This document shows positions 3,267 to 54,143 of a stretch of 64,000 nucleotides of DNA, piece after piece. Every line of letters begins with the position of its first letter. Positions within the stretch are counted from its first letter, which is position 1. Position numbers and translations under genes: made by a program. Source of the stretch: Candidatus Methylomirabilota bacterium (lineage in GTDB: Bacteria > Methylomirabilota > Methylomirabilia > Methylomirabilales > 2-02-FULL-66-22). The stretch spans positions 30,381 to 94,380 of the forward strand of contig JACQVN010000009.1 of assembly GCA_016209735.1 (NCBI GenBank). Reading direction: 5' to 3'. Below the pieces are notes generated by a model, which searched no databases, was not told where the DNA came from, and was given only the letters and a program-made list of their open reading frames with translations.

Positions 3267-3290
3267 GGGCGGCCCTGTGTGGCCGCCCGG
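3263..3290 (+). repeat. GTAG-REP hairpin (GTAGGGGCGGCC-N6-GGCCGCCC), copy 1
   Basis: GTAG followed by the inverted repeat GGGCGGCC/GGCCGCCC. Its TAG is the stop codon of the upstream CDS. Confidence 0.8.
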
Positions 3291-3372
3291 CACAGGGCAC
3301 AGCGCACAGGGCACAGCGCACAGGGCACAGCGCACAGGGCACAGCGCACAGGGCACGGGGCACAGCGCACGG
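3290..3372 (+). repeat. Octamer tandem array (GCACAGSG)n
   Basis: About ten consecutive GCACAGGG/GCACAGCG units read directly. Confidence 0.9.
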
Positions 3373-3377
3373 GGTTG

Positions 3378-3408
3378 GGTGTAGGGGCGGCCCCATGTGG
3401 CCGCCCGG
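3378..3408 (+). repeat. GTAG-REP hairpin, copy 2
   Basis: GGTGTAGGGGCGGCCCCATGTGGCCGCCCGG. Confidence 0.85.
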
Positions 3409-3431
3409 CAGCAGGCAGAAGTCAGCGTTCG

Positions 3432-3462
3432 GGTGTAGGGGCGGCCCCATGTGGCCGCCCGG
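3432..3462 (+). repeat. GTAG-REP hairpin, copy 3
   Basis: Identical 31-mer to copy 2, in direct orientation 54 nt downstream. Confidence 0.85.
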
Positions 3463-3760
3463 CAGCAGGCTGGGGAACAGACTGTGGACCATGGACAATG
3501 GACAGCAGGGCGCGGTGAACGTGAAACGTGGAACGTTGAACGTGCGAAGGGCCCCGAACCCCCGAACCCGCCTGCGGCGGATCTCCGTCCCGCCACAGGC
3601 GGGACTCCGACCCGTACTGCCGTACCGTCGCACTCCCGAACCCGTTCCTGTTCCTGTATCGTCCTACCCCCGTACCCCCGTACGGTCTTTACCATGCGCT
3701 TTGCGCCATGCGCCTTGCGCTTTGCGCCACGCGCCACCTGTGGCGGGGGTGCGATAGGTG
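3463..3760. repeat. Composite spacer of short repeat modules
   Basis: Module order is GGACCAT units, AACGTGR units, a CCCGCC...GGCGGG hairpin, CCGTACC units, then CATGCGC/TTGCGCC units. The same order is seen at 6937-7215 and 34716-34810. Confidence 0.8.
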
Positions 3761-6340: not shown

Positions 6341-6958
6341 TTGCGCGTTGGACTGTTCGGCGGCCTCCTCGTCCTGCCGTGGGTATCTTTGCTCGAATCG
6401 AGCCTTCCGGCTCTCCCACCCGCTTTCCGGCAATCGCCGGCCATCCAAACAGCCATGCAGGCGATCACCCATCTCGGCCTCGGGTGGGTGGACATCGGCC
6501 TGTTCGTAGCCCTCCTGACTGCTGGCTGGTGGCGGCGGTGGCCGGAAGGTCGCAGGATCGGCCTGTACGGCGCGCTGGCGGTGTCCGGCGCGGGGCTTCT
6601 GGATCAGCTTCTCAAACAGTTCTCCTGCCGCGCACGTCCCAACGCAGCCGAAGCCGGTCTTTTCTTCGCCAAGTTTCCGTGTGTTTTCGATGGCTATGCC
6701 TATTCCTCTTTTCCGTCCGGTCATGCGACCACGGCCTTCGCAGCAGCCGCGTTCCTGGCGCTCTGGAGGCCCCGGCTGGCGATCCCGGCCTTCCTGCTGG
6801 CCGCGCTGGTCGCCCTGTCCCGCGTCTATCTCGGCGCGCACTTCCCGTCCGACGTCCTGGCGGGGGCGCTCCTGGGGACCAGCGCGGCCATGGCGGGATG
6901 GCGGTGGGTCGAGCGGAAGGGAGGAGGGGAGCAGAGAACGTTGAACGTGGAACGTTGA
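6341..6958 (+). CDS. PAP2-family phosphatase (type 2 phosphatidic acid / undecaprenyl-diphosphate phosphatase family)
   Basis: Has the PAP2 motifs SFPSGHAT and SRVYLGAHFPSDV plus multiple TM segments. The C-terminal residues and the stop are encoded by the AACGTG repeat. Confidence 0.8.
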   Translation: MRVGLFGGLLVLPWVSLLESSLPALPPAFRQSPAIQTAMQAITHLGLGWVDIGLFVALLTAGWWRRWPEGRRIGLYGALAVSGAGLLDQLLKQFSCRARPNAAEAGLFFAKFPCVFDGYAYSSFPSGHATTAFAAAAFLALWRPRLAIPAFLLAALVALSRVYLGAHFPSDVLAGALLGTSAAMAGWRWVERKGGGEQRTLNVER

Positions 6959-7215
6959 ACGTGCGAAGGCCGCCGTACCGCCGTACCGCCGTACTGCTTT
7001 TACCATGAGCTATGAGCCATGAGCCCGGTCCAGGGAAGCAGGGAGCAGAGGGGCACGGGAGCTGGGGGAGCGGAGGGGCGAAGGAGCAGGGAGGGACGGA
7101 CCGTGGACCATGGACGATAGACCACGGACAATGGGAACGCATAGGGGCAGAGGGGCTCAGAGGAACGGATCATGGACCATAGACCATGGACCATGGATGA
7201 TGGACGATGGACCGC
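6937..7215. repeat. Composite spacer: AACGTGR units, CCGTACCG units, CATGAGC units, G-rich stretch, GGACCAT units
   Basis: Tandem units read directly. The module order matches 3516-3735. Confidence 0.8.
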
Positions 7216-7419: not shown

Positions 7420-7583
7420 AAATCCCCCTAACCCCCCTTTACAAAAGGGGGGCGGAGGGGGGATTGCGAAAGGGGGGCGGAGGCCTGTGTGCGCCAAGCG
7501 AAGCGCCTGCCTGCCCCGCCCGCGGCGCAGGCAGATCGCACGCAGACAGGCGATGCAGACAGGCGGCAGGCAGGGGGGATTTC
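7420..7583. repeat. AATCCCCC...CCCCCTTT-N-AAAGGGGG...GGGGGATT palindrome carrying a nested CCTGCCTG/CAGGCAGG element (7484-7574)
   Basis: The right arm ...GCGGAGG / GGGGATTT is interrupted by about 90 nt. The same architecture occurs at 33535-33623. Confidence 0.75.
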
Positions 7584-8010: not shown

Positions 8011-8547
8011 ATGTCCACGAAGGTTCTCTCACTGGCGGCGGGGATCCTCCTTCTGGCGGGTTGCGCGGGGATGGGGGCGGGAGGGAGCAGTAGCTCTGTC
8101 TTTGCCCCGTATCCTCCGCCGGGCATGGACCATCAAGTGGGCGCAGAACACGTCGAGCTGTTCTGGCGCTGCCTTCGGCCGGAGCCGGGACTGCTCAGGC
8201 TGGACGGGCTGGCGATGAATCGCAGTTCGCCACATCCGGTGCAATTCTTCAAGGCGGAGCTCGTCGGCGTGGATGCTGGTGAGCGGACACGCTCCTCCGG
8301 CCGAGCGGAGGCGCGGGACATCGTGATCCGCACCTACGAGGCGTCCCCCTTCGAGATCGTGCTCAGGGAGGGTGGGGACGAGGTGCGCTTTGACCTTTAC
8401 TACGATTACCAGGCTCAGATCCCGGATCATATTATCCTCTCTGCTGGTGCGCGGTTTCGCATGTTCGCTTACTATCAGCGCTACCTAGCGAGGGATGCCT
8501 GCAATCCCGCAGCGCACCGGTCAGGTCCCAGTTCGATCACGCAGTGA
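8011..8547 (+). CDS. Lipoprotein of unknown function
   Basis: MSTKVLSLAAGILLLAGC lipobox. A GGAGGG RBS lies 5 nt upstream of ATG 8011. The stop overlaps the ATG of the PAP2 fragment. Confidence 0.6.
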   Translation: MSTKVLSLAAGILLLAGCAGMGAGGSSSSVFAPYPPPGMDHQVGAEHVELFWRCLRPEPGLLRLDGLAMNRSSPHPVQFFKAELVGVDAGERTRSSGRAEARDIVIRTYEASPFEIVLREGGDEVRFDLYYDYQAQIPDHIILSAGARFRMFAYYQRYLARDACNPAAHRSGPSSITQ

Positions 8548-8804
8548 TGCAGGCGATCACCCGGCTCGGCCTCGGCTGGGTGGACATCGGCCTGTTCGTA
8601 GCCCTCCTGACCGCTGGCTGGTGTCGGCGGTGGGCGGAAGGTCGCCGGATCGGCCTGTATGACGCGCTGGCGGTGTCGGGCGCGGGGCTTCTCGATCAGC
8701 TTCTCAAACAGCTCTCCTGCCACGCGCGTCCCAGCGCGCCCGAAGCCGGTCTCTTCCTCGCCAAGTTCCCTTGCGTCTTCGATGGCTATGCCCATTCCTC
8801 GTGA
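8544..8804 (+). pseudogene. Truncated paralogous copy of the PAP2 gene N-terminal half (lacks the catalytic motifs)
   Basis: 8547-8800 is about 90% identical at the nucleotide level to 6456-6712. The reading frame stops just before the SGH motif. Confidence 0.65.
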
Positions 8805-8847: not shown

Positions 8848-9040
8848 GGCTCGTGGCTGATGGCTGATGGCTGATGGCTCATGGGGGACCGGTCTCTACC
8901 ATGAGCTATGAGCCATGAGCCCCATCCGGGGAAGTAGGGAGCAGGGGCGCAGGGGAGCGGAGGGTAACGGACGATGGATGGGGGACCAGGGACGATGGGC
9001 GATGGACCAGGGACGATGGACCGTGGACGTGGCAGCCTGG
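8848..9040. repeat. (GGCTGAT)n / (CATGAGC)n imperfect foldback, followed by GGACSAT-type units
   Basis: ggctgatggctgatggctgatggctcatgg ... ccatgagctatgagccatgagcc. The downstream flank parallels 7003-7215. Confidence 0.7.
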
Positions 9041-9470: not shown

Positions 9471-9627
9471 TCATGGCTCACCGTACCAAGCACTCTTGGT
9501 CGCAATTCCGGTGGCGTATTCTGAAGCGGAAGAGTCATGAGAGATCCGGTTTACCTCCCGCATTGTCCCTTACAGCATGGGGGGAGCAGTAACGTGACCT
9601 GTTGGCCGTTCAGACCCGTGGAACTCT

Positions 9628-11535
9628 TTGGCTGCTAAGCGCACGACCCTCATCCTGCTCGTCGTCTCGGGCACACTCTTCTTCACGCAACTGGGCGGGA
9701 CCGGCCTCTTTGACGCGGACGAGCCGGCCTACGCCCAGGCGGCGCGGGAGATGCTCGCACGCGGGGACTGGATCACGCCGACCTTCAACGGGGCCCCCCG
9801 CTTCGACAAGCCCGTCCTATTCTACTGGCTGATCATGGGAAGCTACGCGGGCTTCGGGGTGAGCGAGTTTGCCGTGCGCCTTTGGTCGGCGCTGGCCGGG
9901 ATGGCCCTGGTCCTGCTGACGGCCTGGGCGGCTCGGCGCTGGCTTCCGCCATCGGCGGACTTCTGGGCAGGCGTGGCCCTGGCCACCTGCTTTCTCACCG
10001 CGCTCCTGGCGCGGGCCGCGGTGACGGACATGCTCCTTGCCCTCTGCGTCACGGCAGCCATCCTGGCGGGAGTCGCGGCCCTGGAGGTGCCAGACCGCGC
10101 AGAGCGCATGGCGCACAGGGCACAGGGCACAGGGCATGGCGCACAGGGCATGGCGCACGGCGCAGAGCGCACGGCTTACGACGCACAGGGCACAGTGCTC
10201 GACGCACAGGGCACAGCGCTCGGCGCACAGCGCACGGCGCACGGTGCACAGCGCTCGGCGCGCGGCGCTGGAAGCTGGGCTCTCTTCGCCTGGGCCGCCA
10301 TGGCGTTGGCCGTCCTGGTGAAGGGCCCCATCGGTCTTGTGATCCCCGCGATCACCTTCGGCCTCTCCCTGCCGGCAACCCGGGAGGTCCGCTTCGGCCT
10401 CCGGCGGCTCGTCCCCTGGCAGGGTCTGTTGCTCTTCCTGTGTCTCACCTTGCCCTGGTACCTTCTGGTCCTCCGGGCCAACGGCTGGGCCTTCGTCGAG
10501 GGTTTCGTCATCAAGCACCATTTCACCAGGTACACGGGGGTGGTCTCCAGCCACGCGGGGCCGTTCTGGTTCTACCTTCCCGTGCTCCTGATCGGCTTCT
10601 TTCCGTGGAGCGGGTACCTGCCGTCGGCCGGCTGGCGGGCCTGGCAGATCCTGCGGCGGCGGAGGGCCGAGCGGCATGGAGATCGGTTGATCGTTGTCTG
10701 CGCCTGCTGGGCGGCGGCGGTGTTCGTCTTCTTCTCGCTGGCCGGGACCAAGCTTCCGAGCTACCTGTTCCCCGCCTTCCCCGCCCTCGCCCTGCTGGTT
10801 GCGGGGCTCGGAATTTCAAATGAAAAATGCAAAATGAAAAACCGGCCAACGGAACAGACGGTTGCCCGGTTTTCCATTCTCAATTTTTCGTTTTCCATTG
10901 ACCAGCCGCGCATCGACGCGCGCCTGGTTCGCCTGGCGCCGTGGCTCATCGGCGGCGTCGGCGCGGCGCTGGCCATCGGCTTCGCCCTGCTTCCGTGGAT
11001 CCTGGAATTGGCGCGACCGGCCGCCCGGGGGATCCTGGATGGAGTCGAGGCGCCCACCGCCCTGGCCTTCGGGCTGGCGGGGCTTCTGGGTGTGGGCACG
11101 ACTACAGGCCTTTGTGCGTCGGGCTGGCGGCGCCCGTCCATCCTGGCAGCCATGATGGTCGGAGTGATTCTGGCGGCCGCGCTGCTGGCGGCGCCCAAGG
11201 CGCATGCCATCTTGCAGGGTGCGCTCAGGGAGTTTAGCGACGATGCTCGCCGCCTGGTGCCGCCGGACGGCACGGTGGTCGCGTATGGACTGAATGCCCC
11301 AAGCATAGTATTCTACGCGGAACGCCGGGTTCTCCCGTTGGGGCCCGGCACCCCGGACGGTCTCGATCGGATCCAGCGCCTGCTCGCCGAAGGCCGGCCC
11401 ATCGTGGTCATCTCCCGCAGCGCGCACGCCCCGATCCTGGATCGCGTTCCCGGGCTGATTCGCGGGAAAGCCCGTAGCGGGTTCGCGATATATTGGCCTC
11501 GGGCGGCTAGTCAGATTTCCGCTGCCCCACGGTAA
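9628..11535 (+). CDS. GT39/ArnT-like (PMT_2) membrane glycosyltransferase with two in-frame repeat insertions
   Basis: N-terminal LFDADEPAYAQAAREM...GDWITPTFNG.PRFDKPVLFYWL is characteristic of ArnT/PMT-family enzymes, and the protein has many TM segments. At 635 aa it is about 85 aa longer than expected, matching the two inserts. Confidence 0.8.
   Translation: MAAKRTTLILLVVSGTLFFTQLGGTGLFDADEPAYAQAAREMLARGDWITPTFNGAPRFDKPVLFYWLIMGSYAGFGVSEFAVRLWSALAGMALVLLTAWAARRWLPPSADFWAGVALATCFLTALLARAAVTDMLLALCVTAAILAGVAALEVPDRAERMAHRAQGTGHGAQGMAHGAERTAYDAQGTVLDAQGTALGAQRTAHGAQRSARGAGSWALFAWAAMALAVLVKGPIGLVIPAITFGLSLPATREVRFGLRRLVPWQGLLLFLCLTLPWYLLVLRANGWAFVEGFVIKHHFTRYTGVVSSHAGPFWFYLPVLLIGFFPWSGYLPSAGWRAWQILRRRRAERHGDRLIVVCACWAAAVFVFFSLAGTKLPSYLFPAFPALALLVAGLGISNEKCKMKNRPTEQTVARFSILNFSFSIDQPRIDARLVRLAPWLIGGVGAALAIGFALLPWILELARPAARGILDGVEAPTALAFGLAGLLGVGTTTGLCASGWRRPSILAAMMVGVILAAALLAAPKAHAILQGALREFSDDARRLVPPDGTVVAYGLNAPSIVFYAERRVLPLGPGTPDGLDRIQRLLAEGRPIVVISRSAHAPILDRVPGLIRGKARSGFAIYWPRAASQISAAPR
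10096..10265 (+). repeat. (GCACAGSG)n-type array inside the ArnT-like CDS, in frame
   Basis: Encodes AHRAQGTGHGAQGMAHGAERTAYDAQGTVLDAQGTALGAQRTAHGAQRSARG. The units are the same as in the intergenic arrays at 3290-3372 and 34444-34650. Confidence 0.85.
10812..10900 (+). repeat. AT-rich AAATGCAAAA-type hairpin inside the ArnT-like CDS, in frame
   Basis: aaatgaaaaatgcaaaatgaaaaaccgg ... ccggttttccattctcaatttttcgttttccatt. Same family as 36141-36230 and 38596-38688. Confidence 0.85.
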
Positions 11536-12964: not shown

Positions 12965-13148
12965 CGGTTCACGGTGCGGCGGTTCACGGTGCGGCGGTTG
13001 GGGCTCCAGCGGTTCACGGTGCGGCGGTTCAAGCCTCGAAGTGTCAACCTTGAACCTTGAACCTCGAACCGTCAGCCTCGAACCCTGAACCTCGAACCTT
13101 CAACCGTGAACCGTCAACCTCGAACCTTGAACCGGAAACCTTGAACCC
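12965..13148. repeat. (GGTTCACGGTGCGGC)n followed by (GAACCTYG)n arrays
   Basis: Three 15-mers, then about 12 GAACC-containing octamers, running up to the lepA start. Confidence 0.85.
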
Positions 13149-13152
13149 CCGT

Positions 13153-14955
13153 ATGGATCACATCCGCAACTTTTCCATCATCGCCCACATCGACCATGGC
13201 AAATCCACGCTGGCGGACCGCCTGCTGGAACAGACGGGGACCCTCAACTCCCGCCAGATGGCGGACCAGGTCCTGGACAGCATGGATCTGGAGCGGGAGC
13301 GGGGGATCACCATCAAGGCCAAGGCGGTCCGCCTGCACCACAGAGGATCCGACGGCCAGGAATACCTGCTGAACCTGATCGACACCCCGGGTCACGTGGA
13401 CTTCAGCTACGAGGTCTCCCGAAGTCTCTCGGCGTGCGAGGGGGCGCTGCTAGTGGTGGACGCCGCCCAGGGGGTGGAGGCGCAGACGCTGGCCAACGTC
13501 CACCTGGCCATGCAGAATAACCTGGCCATCCTCCCAGTCATCAACAAGATCGATCTCCCCAGCGCCGACGTGGAGCGGGTCAAGGGTCAACTGGAGGAGA
13601 TCCTGGCCCTAGACAGCCGGGAGGCCGTCCTGGTCAGCGCCAAGTACGGCACGGGCACGGCGGAGACGCTGGAGGCCATCGTCCGGCAGATCCCGCCGCC
13701 GAGGGGCTCCGTGGCCGCGCCGCTCAAGGGGCTGATCTTCGACTCCTGGTTCGACAGCTACCAGGGGGTCATCGTCTACGTGCGTCTCTTCGACGGCGTG
13801 GTGGCGCCGGGGATGCGAATCCTGTTGATGTCCAGCGGCGCCGTATACGAGGTGACGCAGGTCGGGGTATTCACGCCGGCGATGCGGCCGGTGGATCGCC
13901 TGTCGGCCGGCGAGGTGGGCTACGTCATCGCGGGGATCCGGGACGTCCGGCAGAGCCGGGTGGGCGACACTATCACCGAGGCGAATCGCGCCACGGCGCG
14001 ACCGCTGCCCGGGTTTCGGGAGGTGCTGCCCATGGTCTTCGCCGGCCTCTATCCGGTGGAGAGCGCCGACTATCTGAGCCTCAAGGGGGCCCTGGAGAAA
14101 CTCCAACTCAACGACGCCTCCTTCTCCTTCGAACCCGAGACGTCCCTGGCCCTGGGGTTCGGCTTCCGCTGCGGCTTCCTGGGCCTCCTGCACCTGGAGA
14201 TTGTCCAGGAGCGGCTGGAGCGGGAGTTCGGCCTGACGCTCCTCACCACGGCGCCCACCGTGGTCTACCGGGTCACCACGACGGACGGAAGGGTGCTGGA
14301 GGTGGAAAACCCCAGCAAGCTTCCGCCGCCCCAGGAGATGCTTCGCATCGAGGAGCCTTTCATCACGGCCTCCATCATGTCCCCGACCGAGTACGTCGGG
14401 CCGATCCTCTCCCTCTGCCAGGAGAAACGGGGGGTGCACAAGGGGATCGAATACCTGAAGGACGCCCGGGTCGTCGTCGCGTACGAGCTGCCCCTCAACG
14501 AAATCGTGCTGGATTTCTACGACCGGCTGAAGTCGGTGAGCCGCGGCTATGCCTCTTTCGACTACGACTTCCTGGAGTACCGGGAGAGCCCCCTGGTCAA
14601 GCTGGACATTCTGGTGAACGGGGAGCCGGTGGACGCCCTCTCCTTCATCGTCCATCACCATCACTCCCAGGCCCGCGGCCGTCTCCTGGCCGAGAAGATG
14701 CGGGAATTGATTCCGCGCCAGCTCTTTGAGGTGGTCATCCAGGCGGCGATCGGCAGCAAGGTGATTGCGCGCGAGCGCATCGCCCCGCTGCGCAAGGCGG
14801 TCACGGCCAAGTGCTACGGAGGGGACATCACGCGCAAGCGGAAACTTCTGGAGAAGCAGGCCGCGGGCAAACGGCGGATGAAACAGGTGGGTCGCGTCGA
14901 GATCCCCCAGGAAGCCTTCATGGCCGTCCTCGCGGTGGGGAAAGAGTCAAGTTAG
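13153..14955 (+). CDS. lepA: Translation elongation factor 4 (LepA)
   Basis: [25 protein letters not shown]..., [13 protein letters not shown] and the C-terminal LepA_C region. The annotated upstream 32 codons are encoded by the tandem repeat. Confidence 0.95.
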
Positions 14956-15092
14956 AATGCAAAACCGACAACCGACAAGTTAAAATGCAAAACGGACAAC
15001 CGGCAAGTTAAAATGCAAAACCGGCCTGCCTGCGCCGCGGGCGCGGCAGGCAGGCAACCGACAAGTTAAAACCGACAAGGGACGACCGGCGA
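14956..15092 (+). repeat. Left arm of an AT-rich foldback (AAAACCGACAACCGACAAGTTAAAA units, with an embedded CCTGCCTGCGCCGCGGGCGCGGCAGGCAGG palindrome)
   Basis: Starts at the lepA stop codon. A 25-nt identity to the reverse complement of 15787-15837. Confidence 0.85.
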
Positions 15093-15486
15093 ATGGTTGG
15101 ACGACAGCCGCTCGATGAGCAAGACAGGAAACGCGGGGACGAGCTTGCCGAGCGCTTGCTCGATTTCTCCGATCAAAATCATCGCCTTGGCGTCCCGCCT
15201 TCCCGGTGATCCAGTTGGCCGGCACATCTCCAACCAGATGGTCAGGGCCGGGACATCGGTCGGCGCTCACTACGAGGAAGCGCGGGGAGCCGAAAGCCGA
15301 GCCGATTTCGTCCACAAGCTTGGCGTGGCACTGAAAGAATGCCGGGAGGCGCGGTACTGGCTCAGGGTTGTCCACCGCGCCAAGATGATTCCGGACGATC
15401 TTCCCGGGGCCCTCATCTTGAAGGCCAACGAGCTGTGCGCGATCCTCGGACAGTGTATCCTCACCGCGAAGTCTCGACAGGACTGA
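15093..15486 (+). pseudogene. Four-helix-bundle protein (23S rRNA IVS protein / Avd-like, PF05635 type) with an apparent 1-nt frameshift near 15168-15176
   Basis: Frame A from ATG 15093 gives ...DELAERLLDFSDQ. The frame of ORF 15097 gives IIALASRLPGDPVGRHISNQMVRAGTSVGAHYEEARGAESRADFVHKLGVALKECREARYWL. Together they reproduce the family pattern ER.IDF..RII.L...LP. The shift lies in gatcaaaatcatc. Confidence 0.65.
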
Positions 15487-15536
15487 AGGTTCGCAGTGTG
15501 CCTGTGACTCCATCGCGCAGTCGGATATCGGTTTTA

Positions 15537-15788
15537 CCTGGTTTTTGTGCTGGCGCGCAAAAACCATAACTGAAAGGCATCAGGGAACCCCTCCGGGATT
15601 GGCTGGGAGGAAACAACGACCATCCCGGAAGGAGGTAACCCCGAGGGGTACGCGCCTTGGAACACGGGCCGAATCGCAGGGGCGACCTCTCATCACGCGT
15701 TCCCTTGATGAGACTCTACGGAAGCCCCGTGCAAAGAATTCTTTGCTCCACCAAGTTTGGTTTTTGCGCACCCAGCGCAAAAACCAGG
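15537..15788 (-). mobile_element. MITE/PATE-like element, copy 2 (full length, hairpins at both ends)
   Basis: CCTGGTTTTTGTGCtggcGCGCAAAAACC ... TGGTTTTTGCGCacccaGCGCAAAAACCAGG. The core is the reverse complement of 445-630. Confidence 0.75.
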
Positions 15789-15850
15789 TTTTAACTTGTC
15801 GGTTGTCGGTTTTGACTTTTAACTTGTCCGTTGTCTGTTTTTCGTTGACG
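15785..15850 (-). repeat. Right arm of the AT-rich foldback
   Basis: ggttttaacttgtcggttgtcggttttgacttttaacttgtccgttgtctg is the reverse complement of the left-arm units. Confidence 0.85.
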
Positions 15851-15883
15851 GGTGCGTTCAGGAAGCAGAGGATAAGCACGGAC

Positions 15884-16552
15884 ATGGCACCGAAGACAAA
15901 GGAAAACGAAGTAGCGGTTGGGACGCGGCCGGTGGCCACGCCGAAGTCGGTCCTCCGGGAGTACGCGGAGGCGCTGATCATCGCGGTCCTGCTGGCCTTG
16001 GTGATCCGGACCTTCGTGGTCCAGGCGTTCAAGATCCCCTCTGGGTCCATGCTCCCCACCCTCCAGATCGGCGATCACATCCTGGTCAACAAGTTCCTGT
16101 ATCACTTCCGCCCCATTCAGAGGGGCGACATCATCGTCTTCAAATTCCCGCAGGACGAGAGCCGAGATTTCATCAAGCGGGTGATCGGTCTGCCGGGGGA
16201 AACGCTGGAGGTGCGCGGGACGCAGATCCTCATCAACGGCCAGCCCGTGAAAGAGCCCTACGCGGTGTTCAGCGATGGAGCCTTGGGATCATCCGGCGAA
16301 CGGGACCGGATGGGGCCCATCACGATTCCGCCGAACCGACTGTTCATGATGGGGGACAACCGGGATCACAGCATGGACAGCAGGTACTGGGGTCTCTTGG
16401 ATGAGGCCAAGGTCAAAGGCAAGGCCTTCCTGATCTACTTCTCGGTGCGGAGTGATGATATTCCCACCGACTCCTCGCTGGGGAGCGTCGCCTACGTCCT
16501 TGTGCATCCATCCTTGATCCGCTGGGGACGGTTCGGCCACCTGGTGGAATGA
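15884..16552 (+). CDS. lepB: Signal peptidase I
   Basis: IPSGSMLPTL (catalytic Ser), GDHILVNKF, KRVIGLPGE (catalytic Lys box) and GDNRDHSMDSRYWG. Confidence 0.9.
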   Translation: MAPKTKENEVAVGTRPVATPKSVLREYAEALIIAVLLALVIRTFVVQAFKIPSGSMLPTLQIGDHILVNKFLYHFRPIQRGDIIVFKFPQDESRDFIKRVIGLPGETLEVRGTQILINGQPVKEPYAVFSDGALGSSGERDRMGPITIPPNRLFMMGDNRDHSMDSRYWGLLDEAKVKGKAFLIYFSVRSDDIPTDSSLGSVAYVLVHPSLIRWGRFGHLVE

Positions 16553-20811: not shown

Positions 20812-20841
20812 CAGCGGGCACAGGGCACAGGGCAGTGGTCG

Positions 20842-20872
20842 GGTGTAGGGGCGGCCCTATGTGGCCGACCGG
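20842..20872 (+). repeat. GTAG-REP hairpin, copy 4
   Basis: GGTGTAGGGGCGGCCCTATGTGGCCGACCGG. Confidence 0.8.
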
Positions 20873-20910
20873 GCAGAGGTCCAAGGTCAGAGGGCACAGG
20901 GCAGGGATTG

Positions 20911-20942
20911 GGTGTAGGGGCGGCCCCATGTGGCCGGCCCGG
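20911..20942 (+). repeat. GTAG-REP hairpin, copy 5
   Basis: GGTGTAGGGGCGGCCCCATGTGGCCGGCCCGG. Confidence 0.8.
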
Positions 20943-21329
20943 CGGGCGAGCTGGCAGCTGGCAACGGGCCGAGCCGCAGCGGGCAGGGGAACAGACCATG
21001 GACCGTGGACCATGGACCGTGGACCATGGACGATGGACCGTGGACCATGGACCACGGGAGAGCAGGGGAGCAGAGGAGCGGGGGGCCGAGGGGCGTAGCG
21101 CACAGGGCAGCGGGCAGAAAGCAGAAGGCAGCGGGCGACAGGTGATCCGGAGGCGGTGACGCGTAGCACGTAACGCGTAAGACGTAAAGCGTGAAACGTG
21201 AAACGTAATACGTAAAACGTAAATCGTAAAACGTGAGAGGCAGCGATGCTTCCTGCGGGTGTTCGTTCGCTGCCTGCTGCCCGCTGTATCGTGCTGCCGG
21301 CTGCCTGCTGATTTCCGCTGGGAGAACGG

Positions 21330-27182: not shown

Positions 27183-28333
27183 AGGTGCGGGGCTATTTCT
27201 CCCGGAGGGCGGGCTTCGCTGCCGATCGCGTGACCCTGCCGTCGACCCCTCCGCCCACCGTGGAAGAGGCCCTCGGCAGCGGCGCGTTTCTCCTGGAGCA
27301 GGCCGGCATCGAGAGCGCTCGCCTGGATGCCGAGTGCCTGTTGGGGCATGCCCTCAGCCTGCCGCGCTGGAGGCTGGCCGCGGCCCCGCAGCGCCGCCTC
27401 AGCCCCGAGGCGTTCGTGGCCTACCTCAGCCTGCTGGAGCGGCGCGAGCGGCGGGAGCCCCTGGCCTACCTGGTGGGTGGGCGGGAGTTCTGGTCGTTGC
27501 CCCTGGCGGTGAGCCGGAATGTCCTGGTGCCGCGTCCGGAGACCGAAACCGTGGTGGAAGTCGCCCTGGCGGTCTGCTACGGGACAGACCCGCTGGGGCT
27601 CGAGCCGAGCGCCGAGCGCCGAGCGCCAAGCGCCAAGCGCCAAGCGCCGAGCGCCGAGCGCCGAGCGCCGGGGACCGGGGACGGCGGGCGGCCGTCACCC
27701 TCGAACCGCGAATCCCGCCTGGCGGCGGGATCTGCGTCCCGCCGAGGCGGGACTTCGACCGCGAACCTGGAACCTCGAACTTGGAACCTGAAACCTGAAA
27801 CCTCGAATCTCTTGATCGTGGACCTGTGCACGGGGAGCGGGGCCATCGCCATTGCCCTGGCCCGCGAGCTCCCCTCGGCCACGGTGCTGGCCTCCGATAT
27901 CTCCTGGCGGGCGCTCCGCGTGGCGCGCGCCAACGCCGCCGAGCAAGGGGTTGCGGAGCGGATCACGTTCCTGCGGGGGAGCGTCTGGCGGGCGGTGGCC
28001 GGGGCCCTGGGGGACCGGCAGGCAGACGTGGTGGCCGCCAATCCTCCCTACATTCCCAGCGGCCGGATCCCGGCCTTGATGCCCGAGGTGCGCTGGGAGC
28101 CGCGGCGGGCCCTGGACGGCGGCCCCGACGGCCTGGCGATCATCCGGGACATCGTGGCGGGGGCCCCGCAGCACCTCCGGCCGGGCGGCGTGCTGCTCCT
28201 GGAGGTCGGGGCAGATCAGGGGAACGCGGTCACCGCGATGCTGGGGATCGCGGGCGCGTTCGAGGCCTGGCGCGTCGTGCCGGACCTGGCAGGGCTTGAC
28301 CGCGTCGTCGTGGCGCGACGACGCGGCAAGTGA
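27179..28333 (+). CDS. prmC: Release-factor glutamine N5-methyltransferase PrmC, with a roughly 70-aa in-frame repeat insertion
   Basis: LAYL.GGREFW...L.V...VLVPRPETE, then the insertion, then [15 protein letters not shown] and ANPPY (NPPY motif). ATGA overlap with prfA. Confidence 0.85.
27601..27808 (+). repeat. Three repeat modules inside prmC: (GCCGAGC/GCCAAGC)n, a CCCGCC..GGCGGG hairpin, and (GAACCTSG)n
   Basis: Units identical to the intergenic families at 37551-37590, 3575-3615 and 13040-13148. Confidence 0.85.
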
Positions 28334-28680
28334 AAAGTTAAAACCGACAACCGACAAGTTAAAACCGACCTGCCGGCGCCGCTGGCGCGGCAGGCAGGCA
28401 ACCGACAAGTAAAGCCGACAACCGACGAGGCAAGAGTGACTAAAGACAAGGCAAGAGGCAAGATGGACAACCGATCCTGCGGTCCGCAAGGCAAACCGAT
28501 GAATGGATTGCTGTCGTAGATGCTCCCGCCTTCGCCGGACTGCTCTTACATTTTAACTTGTCGGTTGTCGGTTTTGCATTTTAACTTGTCCACCCGGGGC
28601 GGATCGGCTTTTCATTTTGCCTTGTCGGTTGTCGGTTTTAACTTTTGACTTGTCGGTAGTCCGTTTTGCATTCCGCCGGA
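28331..28680. repeat. AT-rich foldback filling the prmC-murA spacer
   Basis: 28331-28359 (gtgaaaagttaaaaccgacaaccgacaag) pairs with 28621-28649 (cttgtcggttgtcggttttaacttttgac) at 28 of 29 positions. Further inverted units lie inside, plus a CCTGCC..GGCAGG palindrome. Confidence 0.85.
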
Positions 28681-29944: not shown

Positions 29945-30428
29945 CATGTTAAAATGCAAAACCGACAACGGACAAGTCAAAAGTTAAAACCGACAACCGA
30001 CAAGTGAAAAATTGAGGCCGCAACCGACAACGGACAAGTGAAAAGTTAAAGCCGAGAATGGACAGCGGTGTCGTGTCTCCCTGCAGAATTGCCCGACATA
30101 TCCAGGGCGTATCCTCCCGGCGTCATTCCCGCGCAAGCGGGAATCCAGATTTGGGCCATCCCCGAGTGAGGCATTCGGAGACGGGTGGGCTTCCGCTCCC
30201 CGATAGGGGCTTTCTGGGACAGGCTTCACGGGAGCGATGAGAGTTTTCATGACCGCACTCGTGCAAACGCAGAGATGTTGCCGGATATATCGAGGAGTGC
30301 TGCTATCAGACACCAGTCCTACTCCTTCGGCTGGTATCACTTTTGACTTGTCGGTTGTCGGTTTGAACTTGTCGGTTCGCACTTGTCGGATTTGACTTGT
30401 CGGTTGTCGGTTTTGCATTTTAACTTGA
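29945..30428. repeat. AT-rich foldback filling the murA-hisG spacer, with a unique core of about 270 bp
   Basis: 29948-29978 (gttaaaatgcaaaaccgacaacggacaagtc) pairs with 30394-30424 at 30 of 31 positions. The core contains a GTCATTCCCGCGCAAGCGGGAATCCAG hairpin. Confidence 0.85.
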
Positions 30429-33534: not shown

Positions 33535-33623
33535 AAATCCCCCCAACCCCCCTTTGCCAAAGGGGGGCGAGGCCTGCCTGCGCCAGGCGAAGCGCCTGCC
33601 TGTGCGTGCCGCACGCAGCCAGG
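33535..33623. repeat. AAATCCCCCC...GGGGGGATTT palindrome with a nested CCTGCCTG...CAGGCAGG element (33573-33614)
   Basis: The interruption is at the same position (GCGAGG / GGGGATTT) as in 7420-7583. Confidence 0.75.
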
Positions 33624-33679
33624 CGGCAGGCAGGGGGGATTTCGCCGGGTGATGGCCTACGCGAGCTGAATTGGGGGTA

Positions 33680-33818
33680 CCTGGTTTTTGCGCTCGGCGC
33701 GCAAGAACCAAACAGGGTGGAGCAGAGAATTTTGGTCGGTGTTCACTGCCGGCGAGTCCCCCAAGGGTTCCCTGATGTGTTTCAATTATGGTTTTTGCGT
33801 GCCAGCGCAAAAACCAGG
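33680..33818 (+). mobile_element. MITE/PATE-like element, copy 3 (internal-deletion derivative, both terminal hairpins intact)
   Basis: Shares the first 55 nt and the last 70 nt with copy 1/2 and lacks about 115 nt of core. Its right end ...AAAACCAGG runs into AGGTAGC-ATG of hisB. Confidence 0.75.
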
Positions 33819-34422: not shown

Positions 34423-34531
34423 GGATTTGCGATTGCCGATTGGGGCACAGCGCAAAGCGCACGGAGCACAGCGCACAGCGCGCGGGGCACAGAGCACAGG
34501 GCAGCGATTACGGGGCAGCGAGCAGCTGGCA

Positions 34532-34562
34532 GGTGTAGGGGCGGCCCTGTGTGGCCGCCCGA
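34532..34562 (+). repeat. GTAG-REP hairpin, copy 6
   Basis: GGTGTAGGGGCGGCCCTGTGTGGCCGCCCGA. Confidence 0.8.
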
Positions 34563-34949
34563 CACCGGGCGCGGGGGACGGGGCAGCGGTTAGCTGGCAG
34601 CGGGTAGCGGGCACAGCGCACGGGGCACGGCGCACAGCGCACAGGGCATAGGGTAGCTGGCAGAAGTCAGGGGTCAGTAGTCAGCGGGCAGCGGGCGGTG
34701 GAGCGGGGGGAACGGACCATGGACCATGGATAGCAGGGCGCGTTGAACGTGGAACGTGGAACGTTGAACGTTTAACGTGCGAAGCAGGCCGTACCGTTCT
34801 TATCATGAGTGGGCGGGCATGAAGCCCACCCCTACGCAACCACAACCGATCACGGCCCACGGGAGTCGTCGTAGGGGAGGAGTGTATCCCCTCCCGACGG
34901 GTTGCGCGTTCATGGCGTAGGGATGTGGGTGGAAGCCGGCAGCGGGCCA

Positions 34950-34981
34950 GGTGTAGGGGCGGCCCCATGTGGCCGGCCCGG
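34950..34981 (+). repeat. GTAG-REP hairpin, copy 7
   Basis: GGTGTAGGGGCGGCCCCATGTGGCCGGCCCGG. Confidence 0.8.
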
Positions 34982-35267
34982 CACAGGGCACGGGGCAGCG
35001 GGCAGGAGGGCGAGCCGCAGCGAGATCCCGCCGGGAGGCGGGACAGCGGGCAGCCGGCAGGAAGGCAGGGGGCAATCGGGTAACCCATGATCCGAAGGCG
35101 GCGATGCGTAACGCGTAACACGTAACACGTGAAACGTGAAGCGGTAAAACGGGAAAGGCGGAGATACTGCCTGCGGTTATTCGTTCGCTGCCTGTTGCGA
35201 GCTGCCTGTTGCCTGCTGGAACGGATGCCCCTCTTGCGACTCTGGTTGTTTTCGTGCGAGGTATTTG

Positions 35268-37148: not shown

Positions 37149-37972
37149 TGCTGGCCAAGCGAATCATTCCGTGTCTGGATGTGAAGGATGGCCGGGTGGT
37201 GAAGGGTACTCGCTTCGTGAACCTGCGGGATGCGGGCGACCCGGTCGAGGTGGCGGCGCTCTACGATGCGCAGGGGGCCGACGAGCTGGTCTTCCTGGAC
37301 ATCACGGCCTCCCACGAGCGCCGCCGGATCATGATCGACGTAGTCGCGCGGACGGCCGACCAGGCTTTCATGCCCCTCACGGTGGGGGGCGGGATTCGCT
37401 CCCTGGAGGACATCCGGGATCTCCTGAAGGCCGGCGCCGACAAGGTGTCGCTGAACACGGCGGCGGTGGAGCAGCGGGAGCTGATCCGACGGGCCGCCGA
37501 GCGGTTCGGCAGCCAGTGCATCGTTCTGGCCATCGACGCCAAGCGGCGCGGAGAGCCGAGAGCCGAGCGCCGAGCGCCGAGCGCCGGGGAGGAGTCTCGG
37601 CGCCCGGTGCCCGGTGCCCGGTGCTCGTGGGAGGTGTTCGTTCACGGGGGGCGGACGCCCACGGGAAAGGATGCCGTGGCCTGGGCCGTGGAAGGGGAGC
37701 GGTTCGGCGCGGGGGAGATCCTCCTGACCAGCATGGATCGGGACGGGACCAAGAGCGGATACGACCTGGATCTCACCCGTGCCATTGCCGAGGCCGTGGG
37801 CATTCCCGTGATCGCCTCGGGCGGGGCGGGGACGCTGGCCCACCTCTACGACGGCCTGACGGCAGGCAAGGCGGACGCGGCGCTGGCGGCATCTATGTTC
37901 CACTATCGCGAGGTCACGGTCGCGGAGGTGAAGCGGTATCTGGCAGAACGCGGCGTGCCGGTGAGGCTCTGA
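37148..37972 (+). CDS. hisF: Imidazole glycerol phosphate synthase cyclase subunit, with a roughly 25-aa in-frame repeat insertion
   Basis: [54 protein letters not shown], and IASGGAG. ATGA-type overlap with hisA. Confidence 0.9.
37551..37627 (+). repeat. (GCCGAGM)4 plus (GCCCGGT)3 heptamers inside hisF
   Basis: gagagccgagagccgagcgccgagcgccgagcgccgg...cgcccggtgcccggtgcccggtgctcg. Encodes [24 protein letters not shown]. Confidence 0.85.
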
Positions 37973-37983
37973 CCACGGACGGC

Positions 37984-38089
37984 AGACCATGGACCATGGA
38001 CGATGGACCATGGACGGGGGACCGCGGACCATGGGACCCGCGGTTAATCCGATGTGCTCCTATGGTCCATCGTCCATGGTCCATGGTCG
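37984..38089. repeat. Long hairpin whose arms are (GGACCAT)n tandem repeats
   Basis: 37984-38013 (agaccatggaccatggacgatggaccatgg) matches the reverse complement of 38060-38089 at 28 of 30 positions. The loop is about 46 nt. It lies directly after the hisF stop. Confidence 0.85.
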
Positions 38090-38110
38090 CTTCTCGGAAG
38101 GAGGTCGCTC

Positions 38111-38593: not shown

Positions 38594-38595
38594 GA

Positions 38596-38688
38596 GCAAT
38601 GCAAAATGAAAAATGCAAAATGAAAAACCGGTCAATGCTGCTGGCCATTGCTCGGTTTGCAATTTTTCATTGTCCGTTTTGCATTGAT
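38596..38688. repeat. AAATGCAAAA-type AT-rich hairpin directly after the stop codon
   Basis: gcaatgcaaaatgaaaaatgcaaaatgaaaaaccgg ... ggtttgcaatttttcattgtccgttttgcattg. Confidence 0.8.
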
Positions 38689-38708
38689 TGTCTTGCCCAG
38701 AGGGGCAG

Positions 38709-47088: not shown

Positions 47089-47165
47089 GGGCCCATAGCT
47101 CAGTTGGTTAGAGCCACCGGCTCATAACCGGACGGTCGCAGGTTCGAGTCCTGCTGGGCCCACCA
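47089..47165 (+). tRNA. tRNA with CAT anticodon (elongator Met, or Ile2 if lysidine-modified), CCA encoded
   Basis: Hand-folded cloverleaf: acceptor GGGCCCA/TGGGCCC, D arm GCTC-AGTTGGTTA-GAGC, anticodon arm CCGG-CTCATAA-CCGG, T arm GCAGG-TTCGAGT-CCTGC, then A-CCA. Confidence 0.9.
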
Positions 47166-47658: not shown

Positions 47659-47832
47659 CGGGGACCTGTTTACGCCGTCTTGCGGACTATCGAAACGCCA
47701 CGGGCTTGCAAGCATCGCAGACAAAGTGTAGCGTGTGAAGCACTCCCCTGGCCTAGGGTAGCTCCCGAAAAGCCGCTTCCCGAGCGGCCTGGCCGGGGAA
47801 CCTCTCGGGGCTCTGCATCAGGGAGGAGCATC

Positions 47833-54040: not shown

Positions 54041-54094
54041 AAAACGGGGCGGCTGTAAATGCTTGCCATTGCGACGGTTCAAGAGATAGACCAT

Positions 54095-54143
54095 CCGGCT
54101 CATAACCGGACGGTCCCAGGTTCGAGTCCTGGTGGACCCACCA
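54095..54143 (+). repeat. attR: duplicated 3' half of tRNA(CAT)
   Basis: CCGGCTCATAACCGGACGGTCcCAGGTTCGAGTCCTGgTGGaCCCACCA. It has three differences from the tRNA, two of which are a compensatory T-stem pair swap. Confidence 0.85.

Follow-up and report, generated by a model that had tools for sequence, protein, structure and literature searches.

The lepA–lepB spacer

We examined the spacer between lepA and the signal peptidase I gene lepB in a 64,000-nucleotide stretch of DNA from a metagenome-assembled genome of a Candidatus Methylomirabilota bacterium (candidate division NC10; contig JACQVN010000009.1; the whole stretch is referred to as the window). The original prediction, made from the letters alone, placed here a PF05635-type four-helix-bundle gene and a miniature inverted-repeat transposable element (MITE) between inverted AT-rich arms, in a gap of about 930 bp, and compared this geometry with that of intervening sequences (IVSs) in 23S rRNA genes. 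The spacer measures 928 bp (lepA end at 14955, lepB start at 15884) and does contain such a gene. Its parts follow in the order 5′ arm (14948–15092), open reading frame (ORF) of the four-helix-bundle gene, 3′ arm remnant, MITE and distal 3′ arm (Table 1). On the lepA side, the insert starts with the 5′ arm at the stop codon; on the lepB side, 38 nt separate the end of the 3′ arm from the start of the gene, and this interval contains a GAGGA Shine–Dalgarno sequence. A scan of positions 14800–16000 predicted no promoter and no terminator on the + strand, and an Rfam search of the window gave no match at the insert and no rRNA.

Both arms are tandem arrays with a period of 28 nt, corresponding to four heptamers. 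The 5′ arm is made up of ...AAAACCG ACAACCG ACAAGTT AAAATGC..., and the 3′ arm is complementary. The 25-mer AAAACCGACAACCGACAAGTTAAAA occurs exactly at 14961–14985 on the + strand and at 15789–15813 on the − strand, and with up to three mismatches it is matched 12 times in the window, compared with no match in 100 shuffles. The best inverted pair (14956–15013 with 15789–15846) extends over 58 nt and is 86% complementary, in agreement with the inverted AT-rich arms that had been proposed. The calculated energy of the arm duplex is −71.2 kcal/mol versus −27.4±4.3 kcal/mol for shuffled arms. In the minimum-free-energy fold of 14930–15880 (z = −9.1) the arms pair with each other, so that a stem encloses the ORF as its loop. 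This is the IVS geometry that had been postulated for the protein-coding operon. The elements described are real and lie far beyond chance.

Table 1. Features of the lepA–lepB spacer and of two related hairpins (positions in the window)
Feature	Position	Strand	Remarks
lepA	13153..14955	+	Pfam GTP_EFTU and LepA_C
5′ arm, distal part	14948..15023	+	2.7 copies of the 28-nt unit CAAGTTAAAATGCAAAACCGACAACCGA (4 × 7 nt); overlaps the lepA stop codon
GC-rich hairpin nested in 5′ arm	15024..15055	.	related copy at 28369–28400 in the prmC–murA hairpin
5′ arm, proximal part	15055..15092	+	CAACCGACAAGTTAAAACCGACAAGGGACGACCG
Original start and helix 1 of the four-helix-bundle gene	15093..15209	+	MVGRQPLDEQDRKRGDELAERLLDFS...; frame hits a stop after the insertion near 15172
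Annotated PF05635/TIGR02436 four-helix-bundle ORF (P0001), 123 aa	15115..15486	+	family frame from residue ~20
3′ arm, proximal remnant	15520..15537	+	GTCGGATATCGGTTTTA
MITE, 254 bp	15536..15789	+	hairpin ends CCTGGTTTTTGYGC...GCGCAAAAACCAGG; TTTTA on both sides; in 3′ arm
3′ arm, distal part	15789..15846	+	reverse complement of 5′ arm units
lepB, signal peptidase I	15884..16552	+	Pfam Peptidase_S26
prmC–murA hairpin	28324..28672	.	lepA–lepB arm family; without four-helix-bundle gene
murA–hisG hairpin	29945..30427	.	lepA–lepB arm family; without four-helix-bundle gene; ~270 nt unrelated loop

The ORF at 15097–15486 matched PF05635 with 59.7 bits (cut-off 33.8), the match beginning at profile position 16, and the protein matched TIGR02436 with 75 bits (cut-off 24). 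NCBI holds entries from an NC10 contig that match the 123-aa protein and LepB (P0121) with 100% identity each. A profile of 37 homologues recognized PDB 2RLD, an entry with five deposited chains, over 117 residues (E = 1e-27). On alignment with three homologues (L009, L006 and L012), we noticed a 1-nt insertion near 15172 (TCCGATCAAAATC versus TCCG-TCAAGATC), which places helix 1 and the rest of the gene in different frames. Helix 1 (RGDELAERLLDFS) is read in the frame of the ATG at 15093, which meets a stop codon at 15207, and the remainder in that of the ATG at 15115. With the family profile, both frames of this gene were matched and nothing else in the window. Scoring above the curated thresholds, the protein belongs to PF05635/TIGR02436, although its sequenced form is not intact, the frameshift in helix 1 leaving no single ORF that covers the four helices.

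The MITE has 18-nt terminal inverted repeats, and alignment with homologous loci indicated that it splits a formerly continuous 3′ arm. The original prediction was thus right as to the presence of a MITE, of which the window holds two further copies, but its location is inside the right arm. Judging from the frameshift in helix 1 and the MITE in the 3′ arm, the lepA–lepB copy appears to be decaying. The other members of the MITE family lie at ~413–650 (−) and ~33680–33800 (−). One copy is of full length (254 bp), another is without an end, and the third is shortened by an internal deletion (~115 nt); the family ends are themselves hairpins (CCTGGTTTTTGCGC-N4-5-GCGCAAAAACCAGG).

As for the neighbouring gene, the true start of lepA is probably the ATG of MDHIRNF. 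An alternative, longer ORF (TTG, from 13057) translates through a heptamer array, and such an array is located at 13039–13147, upstream of the lepA start.

Related loci in NC10 relatives and other organisms

In the nearest relatives, whose LepB proteins are 81–82% identical, the lepA–lepB spacer is 165–200 bp long. At this site L096 and L099, and L006 in a 118-bp version, share the arms and the outer flanks of the window locus, but their hairpin is without the gene. The assumption that lepA and lepB are normally adjacent was therefore not strictly correct, as relatives display a hairpin spacer of 118–200 bp. Close homologues of the four-helix-bundle gene (64–77% identity) occupy other intercistronic spacers with the same arm type. 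They are found between the polyprenyl synthase gene ispB and lepA (P0002/L009, 73% identity; P0021/L006-8, 69%; L016-18) and between the genes for biotin carboxylase (accC) and its carrier protein (BCCP) (L010-15, P0030 with 68% identity, L019 and L020), and all of these ORFs lie between (AACCGAC)n and (GTCGGTT)n arrays. Among NC10 relatives the gene lies within the same arm type at three different sites, and this difference in site supports mobility or gain and loss. The arm-bounded unit has inverted arms and occurs in multiple copies; on comparison with the empty sites, no target-site duplication was recognizable at the arm boundaries.

A metagenomic set of 80 loci with relatives of 39–77% identity was then collected, of which 66 were testable for flank complementarity; 173 positions on the same contigs served as controls, and a flank alignment score of at least 30 was taken as the threshold. 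This score was reached at 56 of the 66 loci (median 40) and at two of the 173 control positions (median 19; Mann–Whitney p = 5e-29), which supports the gene with its inverted arms as a recurring unit. The self-identity of the arms is 0.69 at lag 7 and ~0.2 at other lags. The density of heptamer arrays is 2.41 per kb adjoining the gene versus 0.22 per kb in the remainder of these contigs, an 11-fold difference, and the A-rich arm is the upstream one in 60 of 62 loci. Arm sequences vary widely among loci (AATGCAAAATGAAAA, CAAAAGGCAAAGTGC, ATCAATGGCCAATT, AACCGAGAACCGAG and others), but the similarity of arms follows the identity of the proteins (Mantel rho = 0.26, p = 0.001). A core (CAA/AAA) is conserved every 7 nt between variable spacers. 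Most genes next to the ORF share its orientation, at ratios of 22:3 upstream and 25:6 downstream. An Rfam search of 20 long related loci gave no rRNA. As the gene recurs together with arms whose sequence diverges with that of the protein, these results point to a single inherited cassette that changes its site. The comparisons show the ORF and its arms to be inherited together, in a unit that sits at different intercistronic sites in relatives and is co-oriented with its neighbours.

The gene-plus-arms layout is also present on plasmids of Nostoc punctiforme, N. flagelliforme, Candidatus Chlorohelix allophototropha and Treponema saccharophilum. The N. punctiforme arms consist of AGTCGGA/GGTCGGA units (z = 19), and those of N. 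flagelliforme of AATTCAA × 4.4, with 31 of 31 positions complementary. Four-helix-bundle genes were also seen within other gene clusters, namely between cas2 and cas1, on the opposite strand (L101, Anabaena cylindrica pANACY.01, 1504–1851), between genes for a helicase and an N6-DNA-methylase (L102, Chlorohelix, 1495–1860), and beside tnsA and xisH/xisI (L100, Nostoc punctiforme pNPUN01, 1483–1938).

In a number of the homologues the N-terminal extensions 'MENRQPRT...', 'MANRQPTT...' and 'MRNFKPTTDNR' are translated 5′ arm repeats (ATGGAAAACCGACAACCGAG...). This applies to P0005, P0008, P0010, P0011, P0020, P0021, P0024, P0027 and P0056, whose true start is probably the Met directly ahead of (K/R)GDELA. 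Annotators should be aware that N-terminal extensions of the 'MENRQPRT...' type in PF05635/TIGR02436 proteins derive from the translation of arm repeats.

We considered the possibility that the arms function at the DNA level only, as MITE-like terminal inverted repeats, as mobile homology for transposition or recombination, or as cruciform or replication-slippage structures, with neither RNA pairing nor RNase III involved. The mismatches between arms comprise 117 G·U, 120 A·C and 242 transversions, which provides no excess of wobble pairs and is compatible with this explanation. The same can be said of the slippage-prone nature of the arm arrays, and of the presence or absence of the gene at two adjacent sites whose arm types are shared. 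On the other hand, no DNA-moving enzyme is encoded: the product is a 118-aa helical bundle for which we found neither a match among the PADLOC defence models nor a transposase match. Nor is a target-site duplication evident around the arms. The gene occupies intercistronic positions among strongly co-oriented neighbours, and the stem of the rRNA version is a substrate of RNase III (PMC4990558). Taking these points into account, we regard a role confined to DNA as rather improbable.

The periodicity of the arms raises another alternative, in which the heptamer arrays are a platform on single-stranded RNA or DNA for an oligomeric, ring-shaped four-helix-bundle protein, serving in autoregulation or packaging, and their inverted symmetry is secondary. 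TRAP protein binds spaced triplets, providing a parallel, and Avd, a PF05635 protein of diversity-generating retroelements (DGRs), binds nucleic acid. The core repeated every 7 nt with variable spacers, a period that fits no helical repeat, would suit such binding, as would the covariation of arm type and protein. The five chains of 2RLD and the report that S23p, the protein encoded in 23S rRNA IVSs, is a homopentameric toroid (PMC4990558) would agree with a ring. However, arrays are retained at sites where the gene is missing or damaged, and the order of the heptamer variants is mirrored between the arms beyond unit-shuffling, a symmetry that binding alone would not require. The mirrored order was observed in 44 of 46 loci, in a test that is biased upward because the best alignment is picked first and is thus a weak argument only; it could equally stem from inverted duplication. 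The binding platform seems to us very unlikely.

Heptamer arrays without the gene

Arms of the lepA–lepB family are not confined to the four-helix-bundle gene. Two gene-less hairpins with such arms lie in the window between prmC and murA and between murA and hisG (Table 1), and neither tblastn nor a profile search of the six-frame translated window detected a further or degenerate four-helix-bundle copy in the empty hairpins. Scanning contigs with an arm 19-mer revealed one true relative, a short empty hairpin between two unrelated genes in another NC10 genome. More generally, the window contains 42 heptamer-periodic segments of more than ten sequence types, several of which form hairpins in other spacers, and some of which are in frame within genes.

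These observations raised the possibility that heptamer-array hairpins are generic host structures that fill intercistronic spacers for mRNA processing, stability or another role, with the gene a mere passenger and no cassette involved. The number and variety of the arrays in the window speak for this view, as do the empty hairpins of the same family in the window, at lepA–lepB in relatives and in the other NC10 genome. So does the variety of what the hairpins hold, unrelated sequence in the murA–hisG loop and a MITE in the lepA–lepB arm. Against it, enrichment of the arrays beside PF05635 genes, and bracketing of these genes, extend over unrelated contigs and different phyla; the arm types agree with the phylogeny of the protein; and the same arm type surrounds the gene at the three sites in NC10 relatives. 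We therefore consider a generic host origin unlikely. As to the mobile cassette that had been suggested initially, the part that stood is the recurrence of gene and inverted arms as a unit; the part that did not is the specificity of the arms for the gene, given the gene-less hairpins at prmC–murA, murA–hisG and the lepA–lepB sites of relatives.

Examples of heptamer arrays in the window are those at 3282–3374, 7164–7214, 20990–21061, 34449–34782, 37978–38096 and 38594–38690, and the unit types include GGCACAG, GACCATG, GAACGTG, ACGTAAA and AATGCAA. Some arrays form inverted pairs, such as GACCATG and ATGGTCC at 37985–38088 (27 of 27 positions complementary), and others are direct and single. 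Arrays are also present within unbroken ORFs. In hisF (37543–37632) an array of GCCGAGC units precedes one of CGGTGCC units that is partly complementary to it, in prmC (27595–27813) GAACCTG arrays come after GCCGAGC/GCCAAGC arrays, and the ORF at 9598–11535 contains an array at 10097–10278. These in-ORF arrays look like hairpin-forming insertions tolerated in protein loops.

Several further repeats were observed in the window. The GC-rich palindrome of the 5′ arm (CCTGCCTGCGCCGC...GCGGCAGGCAGG) has the same relative place in the two arm arrays in which it occurs (Table 1), and palindromes resembling it are located in other spacers at 7470–7513 and 33559–33635. An element of ~35 nt (GGTGTAGGGGCGGCCCCATGTGGCCGCCCGGCA), itself a hairpin, is present in seven copies, each adjoining GGCACAG-type heptamer arrays, in the regions 3352–3464, 20816–20943, 34506–34564 and 34924–35037. 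Two long non-coding spacers share a direct repeat of 259 bp with 90% identity (6450–6708 and 8542–8800), each followed by similar heptamer arrays (7001–7068 and 8897–8964). Finally, a tRNA gene (47089–47162) is followed by an int-alpA RNA (Rfam RF02996, 51.7 bits, 47746–47810), and a weak second tRNA (54076–54140) lies 7 kb beyond, its 58-nt 3′ part being 90% identical to the first. This arrangement is the signature of an integrated island with att duplication at both ends.

A probable IVS-type cassette and its known counterparts

Taking the evidence together, the reading we favour, and hold to be moderately probable, is that the lepA–lepB insert is a decaying IVS-type cassette, in which a PF05635/TIGR02436 ORF is set between mirror-image A-rich heptamer arrays in the loop of an intercistronic hairpin. 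Presumably possessing neither a promoter nor a terminator of its own, the cassette would be co-transcribed in the lepA–lepB message. Its arms would pair in the transcript as a long imperfect duplex that RNase III may cut, freeing the ORF segment, by analogy with the S23p-bearing IVSs of 23S rRNA. After cleavage, the lepA message would end just past the stop codon and lepB would retain its ribosome-binding site, and the two transcripts might be uncoupled, as originally suggested. With regard to its history, the ORF may have entered a pre-existing hairpin by recombination between like arms, for example from an ispB–lepA cassette, such as relatives possess, one gene upstream; alternatively, relatives may have lost the ORF from the lepA–lepB hairpin.

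There are points that weigh against this reading. The arm mismatches, with no excess of G·U over A·C, do not demonstrate selection for pairing in RNA; with regard to an RNA stem as such, this outcome is neutral. The arm family and many heptamer arrays exist without the four-helix-bundle gene, and the arms are thus not purely a feature of the cassette. Processing of the transcript by RNase III is only inferred, from the rRNA analogy, and the frameshift near 15172 could be an assembly error in a metagenome-assembled genome.

A broader proposal would regard PF05635 genes and intergenic heptamer arrays as one system. The ORF-bearing cassettes would be complete elements and the ORF-less hairpins and arrays non-autonomous or decayed derivatives, maintained or spread by the ring-shaped protein, which would act in trans on the motif spaced at 7 nt in RNA or single-stranded DNA. 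The derivatives would include the NC10 arrays described here and possibly the short tandemly repeated repetitive (STRR) sequences of cyanobacteria and the convergent repeats of Xanthomonas. We view this extension as rather doubtful; if true, the elements embedded in operons would constitute a far larger family, of which the 23S rRNA IVS would be the branch residing in rRNA. Should the gene and its inverted arrays simply be one unit of operons, the S23p-bearing IVS would be one case of a widespread element riding host transcripts. To our knowledge, no function has been assigned to the very large PF05635/TIGR02436 family outside DGRs, and we know of no explanation for bacterial heptamer repeats (STRR and similar) in the decades since their description. 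The interest of the locus lies in the general gene-plus-arms pattern that one decaying copy revealed. In the literature that we searched, subscription-only sources not being covered, no description was found of PF05635 genes generally enclosed by inverted heptamer arrays outside rRNA.

The arms can be compared with the heptameric simple sequence repeats (SSRs) of intergenic regions, such as GGGAATC in Xanthomonas, GGGGAYT and STRR sequences in Nostoc and Calothrix, and TAACTGA in Beggiatoaceae. They share tandem 7-nt units concentrated in intergenic spacers, and in Xanthomonas convergent pairs, from which stem-loops could form, are frequent (PMC4692102). Arrays of this kind flank the four-helix-bundle genes on Nostoc plasmids in the present survey. 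The units of the SSRs are G-rich and form G-quadruplexes, whereas those at lepA–lepB are A-rich, and the papers on these repeats do not connect the arrays to PF05635 genes. MITEs and the palindromes known as repetitive extragenic palindromes (REPs) and bacterial interspersed mosaic elements (BIMEs) are likewise short intergenic palindromes repeated in many copies, with or without cargo. The arms differ from them in being heptamer arrays rather than unique terminal repeats, and no target-site duplication, cognate transposase or REP-associated tyrosine transposase (RAYT) was identified for the arms.

The protein itself resembles Avd, which belongs to PF05635 and is a small four-helix-bundle oligomer. 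Of the connection to Avd and DGRs proposed at the outset, this family resemblance holds. A DGR locus was ruled out, as no reverse transcriptase and no pair of template and variable repeats adjoins the gene, whose neighbours are lepA and lepB. In addition, the closest solved structure by sequence is 2RLD, a Bacteroides protein that is not part of a DGR.

The nearest counterparts are the S23p-bearing 23S IVSs of Coxiella burnetii, Leptospira, Xanthomonas and Brucella, which share with the lepA–lepB element the protein family, a stem whose loop contains the ORF, and frequent ORF decay. In the Coxiella IVS, terminal inverted repeats pair into a stem that is cleaved internally by RNase III and has the S23p ORF in its loop; the decaying ORF is immediately preceded by three tandem copies of the heptamer GACAGAT, and S23p-bearing IVSs are regarded as selfish or mobile (PMC4990558). 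Heptamers upstream of the ORF are thus a further likeness to lepA–lepB. The differences are that the stem of the IVS is 28 bp long whereas the arm arrays at lepA–lepB span ~60–140 nt, that excision by RNase III is established for the IVS but only presumed for our element, and that the latter lies between protein-coding cistrons instead of in an rRNA gene. Being located outside rRNA, the lepA–lepB element is not a 23S IVS, but it is IVS-like in every other sequence feature that we could test.

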